Translations under genes and position numbers: made by a program
Notes under the pieces: model-generated
Seen by the model: the letters and a program-made list of their open reading frames with translations, nothing else
Database searches by the model: none
What the model was told of the DNA's origin: nothing
In this document: piece after piece, positions 6,566 to 11,386 of the stretch
Numbering within the stretch: position 1 is the first letter of the stretch
Layout of the letters: the number at the start of each line of letters is the position of its first letter
Assembly (NCBI GenBank): GCA_019057795.1
Contig: JAHLWS010000082.1
Coordinates: 64,001 to 128,000, forward strand
Source of the DNA: Promethearchaeota archaeon
Lineage (GTDB): Archaea; Asgardarchaeota; Lokiarchaeia; Sigyniarchaeales; SOKP01
Length of the DNA stretch: 64,000 nucleotides
Reading direction: 5' to 3'

Positions 6566-7975
6566 TTATTTAATTTCATTACTAATTTTTGTTAAAAGTC
6601 TAAGCATTTCATTTTTTACAAAGTAACCACAGAGAGGGCTAAAACTTGGCACGGGTTCATAACCCCCTTCTTCAACATATTCGTGTATAGGAAATAGGTA
6701 TCCTATCCAATCTTGAGCATTTTGAAAAATAAAAATGTTATCTTTTCCAATTAAAGACGCTTTAAGAAAGCTTTCTCCTATTTCTTCAAACAATTCTCCT
6801 GGAATTGTCATTAAACTAAATTCTTTTTCCTTAGATTTTGATTTTGCCTTAACCTTGATATATTGAATAACAGTGTTGCATCTGAATTTACCTTTATTTT
6901 TATCAATGATAAAAATTGGAAAATTAGAATTTAACATTGTATATCGAGCAATGTTTAACAAGAATAATTTCTTAATTGCGTAAATCAATTTGTTTGTAAA
7001 CCATTGTTTAGAAAAATATTTGTGATCTTTCATTGGAATCCAAAACTCGTGTGCATATATTTGGAATTCTATGGTGCTAAAATAATCATTATCAGAAATA
7101 GAATTCGCTAATTTCAACGCTTCTTCAGCAATAGTATATCCAATTCTTTCTGTATGATGATAAGTACCTAGCTGATCGTATATTGGCGTTTTATCCAATT
7201 CAAATTGTTCGTACTCAGTCCCACATGTTGTTATAGGGTTTAAATCACCTGAAGCGCCATTGAAGTATATTGCTTTTACTTTATTATTTGTTAATTCGCT
7301 AATTTTCTGAATTATACGACCCGGATAATCGGCAGATAATTTATTATTTTTGTATGATAATGTAGTAGGATGGCACGCATAGTTAATAATAAAACCTAAC
7401 AATTCATTTTCTTCTAAACTTTTAAAAGTAATTACTCCTAAATGAGGAAGAGTCTTCCTAGAGGGGTGTCTTCTGTTGATTACGAGGTCTGGATTAAAGG
7501 GTTCCTTTTTCCACGCAATTTTGCAAGACTTTAAATTACTAAATAATCCTTCGACCATTTTCAGTATTTTATTAGTGAACCATACGATGTATTTATCATT
7601 CTTATTCGCACCAAACATAATACCTCTCATTACATTTAGAGCACCTCCAGGCCAATAAAACTCGCCCGTTAAATCAAAAGCAGCGTGAGTATGAGTGGCA
7701 TGCACTAAAATTTGTTCAAATTTTAATGAAGGATATTTCTTAATTATTTTATTTCTAATGTATTTTGTTATAGATAAAGGAACTTTTAACAAATCTAAAG
7801 ATATTAGAAGCAAAAAATCTTTAGTAGAAGCTACTGAATTGCTTTCAATTAAAACGCTATGAACATAAATGTCATCTAACTTCCCTAAACAGGGGTCTTT
7901 ACGAGTATATCCTGCCAAAGGTTTACTAACATATTCTTTGGGAGTAATATTTAACTTACTAAAAGCAACTTTCAT
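6566..7975 (-). CDS. Neutral/alkaline ceramidase-like amidohydrolase
   Basis: PLAGY, ATHTHA, NYACHPT, SADYPG, GASGD, PGELF, GGYE motifs. Confidence 0.82.
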   Translation of the reverse strand: MKVAFSKLNITPKEYVSKPLAGYTRKDPCLGKLDDIYVHSVLIESNSVASTKDFLLLISLDLLKVPLSITKYIRNKIIKKYPSLKFEQILVHATHTHAAFDLTGEFYWPGGALNVMRGIMFGANKNDKYIVWFTNKILKMVEGLFSNLKSCKIAWKKEPFNPDLVINRRHPSRKTLPHLGVITFKSLEENELLGFIINYACHPTTLSYKNNKLSADYPGRIIQKISELTNNKVKAIYFNGASGDLNPITTCGTEYEQFELDKTPIYDQLGTYHHTERIGYTIAEEALKLANSISDNDYFSTIEFQIYAHEFWIPMKDHKYFSKQWFTNKLIYAIKKLFLLNIARYTMLNSNFPIFIIDKNKGKFRCNTVIQYIKVKAKSKSKEKEFSLMTIPGELFEEIGESFLKASLIGKDNIFIFQNAQDWIGYLFPIHEYVEEGGYEPVPSFSPLCGYFVKNEMLRLLTKISNEIK

Positions 7976-8108: not shown

Positions 8109-8414
8109 ATGGTTTTTTTTATGGCTTTGAGTAAATTAGATGTATTAGGAATTGAAGGCACTATATCAAATTATAAGCAAGGGCGTCATACAATACACCT
8201 TAAACATTGTATTATCGTGTTTCCAAATGTTAAGACTAGAAAAGAGGCTAATAAATTAATTGGAAGGACAGTAGTTTGGGTAAGTTCTACGGGAAAAGAA
8301 TTAAAAGGTATCATATCGCGCGCACATGGCAACAGTGGAGCGGTTAGAGCCCACTTCAAAAAAGCTGGCGTCCCTGGACAAGCATTAGGTACTAAAGTGA
8401 AAATTATAAAATAA
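8109..8414 (+). CDS. rpl35ae: 50S ribosomal protein L35Ae (eL33)
   Basis: GIISRAHGNSGAVRAHF and PGQALG signature; true start may be the second Met. Confidence 0.95.
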   Translation: MVFFMALSKLDVLGIEGTISNYKQGRHTIHLKHCIIVFPNVKTRKEANKLIGRTVVWVSSTGKELKGIISRAHGNSGAVRAHFKKAGVPGQALGTKVKIIK

Positions 8415-8571: not shown

Positions 8572-10677
8572 ATGTCGGAGCAACACTTCCAAATATGTCA
8601 TTTTTGCCAGCGAAATGTAAAGATAGCGTATTATTGTGAAAAATGTGGCGTTAGTTGTTGTTCTGATTGCCTTCACGAAGAAAAAGTCGATTCTTATGTT
8701 TGTCAAGATTGCAATTCAAAAAATATTGCTCTCTCAGGATCAAGTAAGCAAAAGATTTGTAACGATTGTGGAAAAGAGAATATAATCAAAACGAACCAAC
8801 TTTTAAAATCTTGTCCCAAGTGTCATTCTCATCAAATTATTAATATCTACGAAAAGAAGGAAGATTTAGAAAAACAATTTTTAGAATTAATTAAAAACGC
8901 ACGCTCCTTTATTGATCCATTTAGGGATATAGTAAATTCCCTTTATATGATAAGACAGAGAGTATTTGATGCAAGAGCGCCTCCTATAAGGTGTTTTCAT
9001 TATCCTAAAATGGAATCCGACCTCTTAGCGCTCTTTAAATTATTTATATATGCAAAAGAAAATCTTCTTGAAAAGATACACAATCTAATCCAACATTTAT
9101 CTATAAATAGAGAATATTTTTTTAATATTTACACTCAACAGAATTCTAATATAAGAATTATAGAAGACATTTTAGAAAATTTAAATAGAAGCTATAATTC
9201 TATAACTGATTTTATTCAAAGTAATGTAAAAACAATAAATACTAGCATAGATAACCTATTAAAAAATCTTATTTTCATAGACAAGATCGCATTTTACTTC
9301 AAAAACTATATTAAATTTCTCAATTTAGCAGAAGATGAAAAACCCGTTTATGCGATATATGCAAAATTAGCGAATGGTCTTAACACAGAAGATAAATACA
9401 AAAAAGATAAAGGTATTCTGTTCATTACTAATTTTGACTTATCATTTGTTCATGAATATGGAAGATTAAAGAGAAAGAAAAAAGGTATTTTTAAAGCGCC
9501 AGTTAAAGATTTAACTAGCGTTAAAATAAAAGGTAAGCTGTTTAAAAAACTTTATATCGAATTTCCTTATGGTAGATATGAATTCACACTTCCTACAAAT
9601 TCAATTTCGCGAGTATTAGATTATATTCTACTAGCCAGAAGTTTTGATGAAACTATTGTGTATGATAAAGTGGCAGCGAAAAAACTTTACGATATTGATG
9701 TCGATTTGAGCGATTTAACCAATTATATTGAGGAGACGATAAATTCTTTCTTTAGTATAAAATGCCAATATAATAATGTTAATTCAAATAATGTATTCGT
9801 TAATCTTCACAATGCTAACCCATTATTTAATCAAAATCTAAGGAATGTACCTAATCAAATTTCACTTCAAGCCCCATATAATCAAAATCAGCCTACTTAC
9901 CAAAATAATTTTATTTATCCATTTAATAATTATCAAAATATGCCAAGAAATCCATTGCTTTATCAAAAAAATAAAGGATTTTCTAATCAAGGATTCGGCC
10001 AAATTCAAACTCCTGAAGAATTAAACCATTACAACAACACAGTAAGGCACTACCTACCGCCAAATTACAATCAAAATGAATTCTTCTTGCAAAATCTAAC
10101 TGAGACCGGTAGGATACAGAATTACGATCCTATAAGGTCTAACAGCGGATTTAAAAACAATTTTTCTAATGCTGAAGAGAAAAACTTTTTAATGAGAAAA
10201 TTAGAACAATTGCAAAGATACGGCGCCCCTTCTTCTAATCCATTGTATAGAAATAATTTTGACGAACGATCGTACGAACCTGCCTATTATCGATTGAATG
10301 AAAAAGTTAGACAAATGCCACAATATAACGAATACTCGAGGAATCATCTTTCAGAATTGTTTAATAATGACCATATGTCAAATCAACCGAATGATCTCCT
10401 AAGACCTAATTCAAAGAAAATGAATAAAACGAGACGTAAAAAAATGTTTGAATTGAAAAAAGAAAAATATAGTCTCGTAGAAACGTTAAAAACATTAGAA
10501 TCAAAATTTGAATCTGGAAATATTTCTGAAATTGATTTCTTTAAAAATTTTAAGAAATTACAAAAGGATTTCTATACAATTGATAAAAGCATTGAATCGA
10601 TCGACGAAGAGATGCAAGAAGAAGATTTTTTAAGAAGAAATGCCAAAAAATTCGATAGAAAAAGATATTTTACCTAA
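8572..10677 (+). CDS. Multidomain protein: B-box-like/Zn ribbons, coiled coil, PH(GRAM/GLUE)-like domain, N/Q/P-rich region, C-terminal steadiness-box-like hairpin (ESCRT-I-like candidate)
   Basis: CHFC-x9-CEKC-x4-CSDC-x-H plus three more CxxC; GILFITNFDLSF; NQ-rich tract; EKYSLVETLKTLESKFESGNISEIDFFKNFKKL. Confidence 0.6.
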   Translation: MSEQHFQICHFCQRNVKIAYYCEKCGVSCCSDCLHEEKVDSYVCQDCNSKNIALSGSSKQKICNDCGKENIIKTNQLLKSCPKCHSHQIINIYEKKEDLEKQFLELIKNARSFIDPFRDIVNSLYMIRQRVFDARAPPIRCFHYPKMESDLLALFKLFIYAKENLLEKIHNLIQHLSINREYFFNIYTQQNSNIRIIEDILENLNRSYNSITDFIQSNVKTINTSIDNLLKNLIFIDKIAFYFKNYIKFLNLAEDEKPVYAIYAKLANGLNTEDKYKKDKGILFITNFDLSFVHEYGRLKRKKKGIFKAPVKDLTSVKIKGKLFKKLYIEFPYGRYEFTLPTNSISRVLDYILLARSFDETIVYDKVAAKKLYDIDVDLSDLTNYIEETINSFFSIKCQYNNVNSNNVFVNLHNANPLFNQNLRNVPNQISLQAPYNQNQPTYQNNFIYPFNNYQNMPRNPLLYQKNKGFSNQGFGQIQTPEELNHYNNTVRHYLPPNYNQNEFFLQNLTETGRIQNYDPIRSNSGFKNNFSNAEEKNFLMRKLEQLQRYGAPSSNPLYRNNFDERSYEPAYYRLNEKVRQMPQYNEYSRNHLSELFNNDHMSNQPNDLLRPNSKKMNKTRRKKMFELKKEKYSLVETLKTLESKFESGNISEIDFFKNFKKLQKDFYTIDKSIESIDEEMQEEDFLRRNAKKFDRKRYFT

Positions 10678-10735
10678 GAATTCCAATACTAATCAAAATT
10701 GATTGAAATTGGTAAAGAGAATAAGTTTAAAAAAA

Positions 10736-11386
10736 TTAACTTTCTAATTCTTTCCTAAGTTTGTTGATTTCGTCTTCTAATTTTGCTTTCGTTTTTATTT
10801 CAGTTTCTTCTTCCATCTCGTCAAACTCGCTCAGATATTGTAAGTCGTCGGCAGGTACTTCTGGCATTTGGCCACCTTGTTCTAAAAGCATTTCGGTTTC
10901 TAGTTGGTTTAACTCATCAGTTACATCGATTGCTAAATCTATTTCGGGATCTCCGGCAAGAATATCGGCAGACTCCTCTATTTCTGCAACATATGCCTCA
11001 GAATCTTCGGCTATCTCTGCAATCTTAACAGGAGATGCCTTCGTTGCAATTACTTTTAATTCGTCCCTAATTCCCCCCATTAAATCGCCCGTCGTTGATA
11101 TCATTTGGCCCTCCAAAATTGCTTCTAGCTGACGTTCTATTCTAGCTCGAATGTTGTTCGCCCGATCTACCTTCATCTGATATTGTTTGTGTTGAATTAA
11201 ATAATTCTTAGCTCTAGTTCTTTCTCCTCTCTTTATTGCAATTTTGGCGTTTTTTCTAGCAATTTCTGCTCTTTTATTGAAAGTTTTATTTGATAACGCT
11301 ATTTTTCTAATGTGTGATTTAGCTTTAATAACTAATTCGTCTTTTTCTTTAGCTTTCCGGGGAAAAAGTTTTTTTTTTAACGCCAT
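10736..11386 (-). CDS. ESCRT-III (Snf7-family) protein
   Basis: 216 aa; basic N-terminal helical hairpin (AKIAIKRGERTRAKNYL), acidic C-half (DELNQLE, MPEVP), terminal MIM1-like helix LEDEINKLRKEL. Confidence 0.85.
   Translation of the reverse strand: MALKKKLFPRKAKEKDELVIKAKSHIRKIALSNKTFNKRAEIARKNAKIAIKRGERTRAKNYLIQHKQYQMKVDRANNIRARIERQLEAILEGQMISTTGDLMGGIRDELKVIATKASPVKIAEIAEDSEAYVAEIEESADILAGDPEIDLAIDVTDELNQLETEMLLEQGGQMPEVPADDLQYLSEFDEMEEETEIKTKAKLEDEINKLRKELES

Follow-up and report, generated by a model that had tools for sequence, protein, structure and literature searches.

The locus described here lies in a 64,000-nucleotide stretch (the window) of contig JAHLWS010000082.1 from a Promethearchaeota archaeon of the class Lokiarchaeia. 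Two genes meet there tail to tail: one encodes a protein of 701 amino acids (aa), named ZCPS in this analysis, and the other a Snf7-type protein of the ESCRT system (endosomal sorting complexes that are required for transport). ZCPS belongs by orthology to Znr_CC_PH_SB, an Asgard family already in the literature, and probably serves as a membrane-anchored ESCRT adaptor upstream of ESCRT-III. The convergent arrangement, with 58 bp between the stop codons, had been described in a first-pass annotation of the window, and the coordinates in the open reading frame (ORF) list and the Pfam Snf7 match confirm it. The features of the pair are:

8572..10677, plus strand: Znr_CC_PH_SB gene (ZCPS), a 701-aa ORF, assigned from its family homologues and PMC10936438
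8572..8844, plus strand: zinc module, aa 1-91, with six CxxC pairs predicted to bind three zinc ions
8845..9336, plus strand: long helical/coiled-coil region, aa 92-255, from AlphaFold2 (AF2) helices
9337..9654, plus strand: PH domain of the GRAM/GLUE/bPH type, aa ~256-361, net basic, from VIA, Foldseek and Pfam on family members
9787..10407, plus strand: disordered N/Q/P/Y-rich linker, aa 406-612, from composition and low predicted local distance difference test (pLDDT) values
10408..10665, plus strand: steadiness-box-type helical hairpin, aa 613-698, from AF2, Pfam, hhalign and VIA
10678..10735, no strand: A/T-rich spacer of 58 bp between both stop codons, read directly from the sequence; no notable hairpin was seen in it by eye
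10736..11386, minus strand: ESCRT-IIIB (Vps20/32/60-type) gene, 216 aa, from Pfam Snf7, PDB 9fn1_U and tree placement

The architecture of ZCPS, which the first-pass annotation had not recognised, has been described before. It is that of asCOG cog.011556, written "Znr_CC_PH_SB" or "Znr_PH_CC_SB", an Asgard-specific family in which three zinc ribbons occur together with a PH domain, coiled coil and steadiness box (Makarova et al. 2024, mBio; PMC10936438). Makarova and colleagues regard the family as a likely part of ESCRT-I and as probably already present in the Asgard ancestor (PMC10936438). ZCPS has the same domain order, with three zinc units, coiled coil, PH domain and steadiness box. The part of Table S2 that covers Lokiarchaeum GC14_75 gives the locus of its member, As_004-p_01543, as PepD-L35Ae-Znr_CC_PH_SB-MetE-Vps20(-)-DHQS-GH57-CAAX (PMC10936438). 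The window shares this neighbourhood, including the convergent Vps20-type gene, and nothing essential differs: MetE, which separates both ESCRT genes in GC14_75, is missing from the window, whereas one ceramidase-like gene is added upstream of L35Ae. Orthology with As_004-p_01543 was judged by this matching gene order. Because Table S3 gives no HHpred evidence for cog.011556 (PMC10936438), each domain of ZCPS was tested anew. Literature searches found no later paper on Znr_CC_PH_SB.

Homologues of ZCPS number 262 in a clustered protein collection, and the best 120 are full-length with 49-92% identity; with such a large set of conserved full-length relatives, the ORF is real and not a product of chance. 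All named homologues come from Loki-type or other Asgard metagenome-assembled genomes, several under the NCBI title "B-box zinc finger protein". In 312 of 400 Asgard genomes the family profile has a match, which need not be the full-length protein in each case. An alignment of 30 family members (A1) is strongly conserved at residues 1-400 and 620-701; a second, phylum-wide alignment (A2) was used for cysteine conservation.

Searches with the entire protein were of little help. Pfam gives weak matches for ZCPS alone (PH_SLA1, E 0.068; DZR, E 0.88), and an NCBIfam search returned nothing useful. The full-length family profile finds weak zinc-ribbon matches among PDB sequences, but not TSG101/Vps23. 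Foldseek with the full-length AF2 model, the mean pLDDT of which is as low as 59 because the linker is disordered, yields no match at E 1e-3 or better. The weakness of all Pfam domain matches for ZCPS alone would suit a zinc-finger/coiled-coil scaffold that works in some other process, with the adjacency to ESCRT-III as inherited gene order of no functional meaning. Such a scaffold is nevertheless quite improbable, given the homology of its C-terminus and the pattern of linkage described below.

At the C-terminus, AF2 predicts two helices (612-647 and 653-698; pLDDT 80-85), where the first-pass annotation had proposed a Vps23-type steadiness box. That proposal gains support from several directions. 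Pfam Vps23_core matches 26 of the 30 members, with a best E of 8.6e-4 and all of them under the 26.8-bit cut-off. When 1.8 billion representatives were searched with the family profile, it retrieved proteins that combine UEV/UQ_con with Vps23_core, among them P0259 (E 7.9e-7), which itself carries a UEV domain and passes the Vps23_core cut-off with 28.6 bits. Alignment of A1 with P0259 by hhalign reached 93.9% probability (E 1.6e-7, residues 621-678). In the reverse direction, P0259 searched against the whole genome of the window produced one match, the ZCPS C-terminus (32% identity, E 4.2e-5). The fold agrees with yeast Vps23 in VIA comparisons (2f66_A, Z 8.7 over 65/65 residues; 2caz_D, Z 8.4). 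The profile comparisons thus show, at a significant level, homology of the predicted hairpin to the steadiness box of Vps23, which speaks against a scaffold for an unrelated process. Vps23/TSG101 differs at the other end: it begins with a UEV domain, whereas ZCPS has no UEV or UQ_con match in Pfam and carries the zinc module, the helices and the PH domain instead.

Structurally, the hairpin is matched best by the CdvA filament of S. islandicus (9s9g_A; VIA Z 9.4, root-mean-square deviation (rmsd) 1.0, 72 residues). This match favours a possible though distinctly less probable role for ZCPS as a direct recruiter that skips ESCRT-I/II: its PH domain would bind the membrane, its helical regions may polymerise, and it would recruit or template ESCRT-III. 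CdvA does this for CdvB in Thermoproteota. Pfam CdvA matches 3 of the 30 members, and the CdvA hairpin and the steadiness box have been treated as related (PMC10936438). On the other hand, the similarity to Vps23_core is more consistent than that to CdvA (26/30 vs 3/30 members), and the PRC barrel that forms the N-terminal domain of CdvA was not detected by Pfam in ZCPS or the other members.

For residues 615-686, the fit to PDB 8whn_A, the cytoplasmic domain of OST1/ribophorin I of Ca. Prometheoarchaeum syntrophicum, is as good as that to Vps23 (Z 9.4, rmsd 1.5, 17% identity). Protein P0270 (395 aa), found with the family profile, combines DUF4062 and TIR with a C-terminal stretch of 57 residues that matches the steadiness-box portion of that profile (E 2.3e-6); a defence-type domain joined to an ESCRT-I-type hairpin was not expected. 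P0226 (222 aa), found in the same way, has a bPH_3 PH domain and a Vps23_core-like end and resembles a minimal form of the family with just a PH domain and a steadiness box.

ZCPS also carries a PH domain. In the AF2 model, GILFITNFDLSF lies within a beta-rich segment (281-339) that is followed by a helix. For residues 280-360, VIA finds the PH domain of Avo1 (Z 9.8, rmsd 2.0, 75 residues aligned), the PTB domain of CCM2 (Z 9.6), the PH domain of Sin1 (Z 9.2) and the PH-GRAM domain of MTMR6 (Z 9.2), and nearly all of the top 50 Foldseek matches of the ZCPS model are PH-containing chains. A Pfam search with a PH-only alignment of 28 diverse members matched bPH_3 in 17, GRAM in 13 and Vps36 GLUE in 12. 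PDB sequence matches of this region are weak and few in number, and comprise bacterial PH domains, BBS5 and the yeast Vps36 GLUE domain (2cay). With 20 K+R residues against nine D+E, the region is basic. These results support a PH domain of the GRAM/GLUE type in ZCPS, as the first-pass annotation had suggested. The ESCRT-II subunit Vps36 likewise combines a GRAM/GLUE-type PH domain with zinc fingers. Its zinc units are inserted in the PH domain, whereas those of ZCPS precede it, and its winged-helix/EAP30 core has no counterpart among the Pfam matches of ZCPS.

The zinc units form an N-terminal module with CxxC pairs at C9, C22, C30, C44, C63 and C81. All six pairs (12 cysteines) are kept throughout A2, from Lokiarchaeia to the most distant members. 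Pfam searches with the isolated N-termini of 30 diverse family members matched DZR in 28 (best E 1.6e-7), zf-B_box in 27 (best E 3.8e-6; ZCPS itself scores 0.068) and the ANCHR-like B-box in 17 (best E 1.9e-5); one relative, P0239, passes the Pfam cut-off for zf-B_box. A model of residues 1-100 (pLDDT 82.8) consists of beta-hairpins throughout. Its best Foldseek matches are the zinc ribbons of Rpb2, Rpb12, MetRS and MCM, all weak at E 0.15 or worse, and the highest VIA score is Z 3.9, in a mixture of RING, ZZ, B-box and ribbon chains. By sequence, the module appears to fit a B-box no better than a double zinc ribbon. The module may be a B-box or a zinc ribbon, and the TRIM-like reading of the first pass is not supported. 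No Pfam match for a RING domain ahead of the module reaches the threshold, ZCPS starts directly at the first CxxC pair, and the fold searches gave no clear answer; a TRIM-type protein is unsupported because there is no RING.

Between this module and the PH domain, AF2 predicts helices at 92-113, 115-135, 147-188 and 194-255, mostly with pLDDT 70-90. Region 92-255 finds generic long-helix matches only, and its coiled-coil label rests on the AF2 helices.

The linker of 207 aa (20% N, 9% Q, 8% P, 8% Y) has pLDDT below 50. Together with the six CxxC pairs and the AF2 model, it bears out the earlier description of a Cys-rich N-terminus, a helical region, a beta-rich domain and an N/Q/P/Y tract of ~200 aa. 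In the Loki family, A1 contains three near-invariant islands in the otherwise variable linker: FFLQN..R.QNY (503-518), a helix with EEKNxLMRKLEQ (~533-550) and NHLS[DE]LF (591-597). The islands may be short docking motifs and do not occur in members with a short linker. The linker helix EEKNFLMRKLEQLQR was considered as a MIM1-like motif, but by eye its fit to the consensus is imperfect, and no such claim is made. Outside the order that holds families f1 (the own family) and f3, the protein has about 500-620 aa and the linker some 30-40 residues (about 90 in f6). A long linker is found in the Loki order only.

The convergent neighbour of ZCPS, a protein of 216 aa, matches Pfam Snf7 above the cut-off (E 5.5e-10). 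Its closest solved relative is PDB 9fn1_U, "Vps20/32/60-like protein (ESCRT-III)" (E 2.9e-91), and a MIM2-like MPEVP is visible in its sequence. A tree of 41 ESCRT-III proteins separates A and B clades at 100/100 support, with the neighbour in the B clade. The genome has two Snf7 genes only, one of each type; the other, ESCRT-IIIA, lies on contig C38, where Vps4 and an EAP30 gene (Vps22) are its neighbours, and a Vps28-like gene is found on contig C73. Neither Vps4 nor a second Snf7 was found in the window by tblastn, in agreement with the first-pass annotation as far as Vps4 is concerned. The neighbour is the sole ESCRT-IIIB (Vps20/32/60-type) gene of the genome. The idea of a "dedicated" extra ESCRT-III in a non-canonical module is thus rejected: with two Snf7 genes, the other of which stands beside Vps4 on C38, the window holds a split-off piece of the normal system rather than a second system. 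The Asgard ESCRT-III proteins seen here, at about 200-240 aa, are too short to contain the added winged helix bound by CdvA, which argues against direct recruitment in the manner of CdvA.

The pairing of both genes is conserved. Among 80 Lokiarchaeial loci, 69 have a convergent Snf7 gene downstream of ZCPS, either directly or past one or two inserted genes (about 1.1-2.4 kb), and the misses are mostly contig ends. The ESCRT role proposed in the first pass finds its support in the conserved linkage to ESCRT-III. Within Lokiarchaeia, L35Ae, DHQS and GH57 are conserved as neighbours equally to Snf7, and ZCPS and ESCRT-III are not co-transcribed because their genes converge; both points would fit a scaffold for another process that merely inherited its position. 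Gene coordinates were also compared outside the own family, where 44 genomes could be assessed: the ESCRT-III gene is convergent within 700 bp in 31 and lies within 8 kb in any orientation in 36, the 31 convergent cases included. Adjacent pairs occur in f3, f11, f19, f20, f21, f28 and f31, so that convergent pairing is found in eight of the 15 Asgard families sampled. On its other side, ZCPS has neighbours that vary by lineage (L35Ae, TldD, metallophosphoesterase). The persistence of the pairing in seven further families with different other neighbours is hard to reconcile with a meaningless remnant of gene order.

The partner is of the B-type in f1, f3, f11, f19, f20, f21 and f28. In f31, it appears as A-type and lies next to Vps4, an assignment that carries the caveat of long branches for both f31 groups; this divergent ESCRT-III was missed by phmmer with the Snf7 of the window and recovered by a Pfam search. 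Some lineages place the gene in a core cluster, with the layout Vps25-Vps4-IIIA-IIIB-ZCPS in f11 and Vps22-Vps25-Vps4-IIIA-ZCPS in f31. A position beside ESCRT-III and Vps4 rather than beside vps23/vps28 resembles that of cdvA beside cdvB/cdvC, and CdvA thereby shares with ZCPS both the shape of the hairpin and the gene neighbourhood.

A variant in f26 (L098:8401-10206, plus strand, genome G298; 601 aa, the same length as P0227) joins the same Zn-CC-PH head to an EAP30/Vps36-family C-terminus. Its head aligns with the family by hhalign at 98.3% probability (E 1.3e-14, residues 6-367), its PH region has a sub-threshold Pfam Vps36_ESCRT-II (GLUE) match, and its gene converges with a B-type ESCRT-III gene 636 bp away. 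It looks like a Vps36-like Asgard protein, judging from these similarities. Because its EAP30 C-terminus constitutes a different architecture, L098 was rejected as a family member and excluded from the linkage counts. The fusion of the head module to an ESCRT-II core is a further point against a scaffold for an unrelated process.

Two side observations concern ESCRT-III genes. In an f21 genome (G119), ESCRT-IIIA and ESCRT-IIIB are separated by a gene for a HerA-like ATPase of 1017 aa (L090:3863-6916, plus strand) and by a gene for a protein of 345 aa whose family is unknown. At G115:C2:13987-14702 (minus strand), the ESCRT-III gene adjoining a family member matches Snf7 in two pieces, which suggests a frameshift or a split gene.

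In the adaptor role considered probable for ZCPS, the PH domain, possibly aided by the zinc module, would bind membrane or cargo like the GLUE/NZF head of Vps36. The helices may dimerise or serve as a stalk. The hairpin would dock on Vps28 and Vps23-like proteins at their steadiness boxes, where it could stand in for the missing Vps37/Mvb12 and relay the signal to ESCRT-IIIB, the initiating polymer. In the Loki order only, the long linker rich in N and Q would act as a flexible tether. Several observations weigh against this role. Vps23_core stays below the Pfam cut-off in ZCPS itself, and helical hairpins are common; designed ones reach VIA scores like those of Vps23, so the fold alone does not decide homology. 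Linkage is with ESCRT-III and Vps4, not with vps23/vps28, the expected ESCRT-I partners. ZCPS and ESCRT-III lie on different contigs in eight of the 44 genomes, and related genomes are not independent samples. Literature searches found no experiment on any Znr_CC_PH_SB member.

A more far-reaching and rather doubtful possibility is that ZCPS represents the ancestral membrane-targeting nucleator of Asgard ESCRT-III, one chain with the task of CdvA or ESCRT-I/II. In that case the ancestral layout of the core locus would have been Vps25-Vps4-IIIA-IIIB-ZCPS, and the Zn-CC-PH head would be the source of the eukaryotic Vps36 GLUE/NZF head, an origin suggested by the f26 variant with its head-plus-EAP30 arrangement.

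Znr_CC_PH_SB is the best genomic candidate for bringing Asgard ESCRT-III to membranes. This point has been in print since 2024, and the copy in the window confirms rather than discovers it. Added here are the extent of the ESCRT-III pairing across families, the placement in the core Vps4 cluster in some lineages, the f26 variant and the Loki-only long linker. The pairing, the Vps4-cluster placement and the Vps36-like variant narrow which interactions should be examined first in cultured Lokiarchaeia.

The L35Ae gene (8109-8414; Pfam) is a neighbour of the ZCPS gene, and 3-dehydroquinate synthase II (DHQS), a GH57 enzyme and a CAAX protease are further neighbours in the window. Between PepD and L35Ae, a place where the listed Lokiarchaeum GC14_75 locus has no such gene, sits the 469-aa ceramidase-like gene (6566-7975, minus strand), named after neutral/alkaline ceramidase, whose N-terminal domain it matches weakly.

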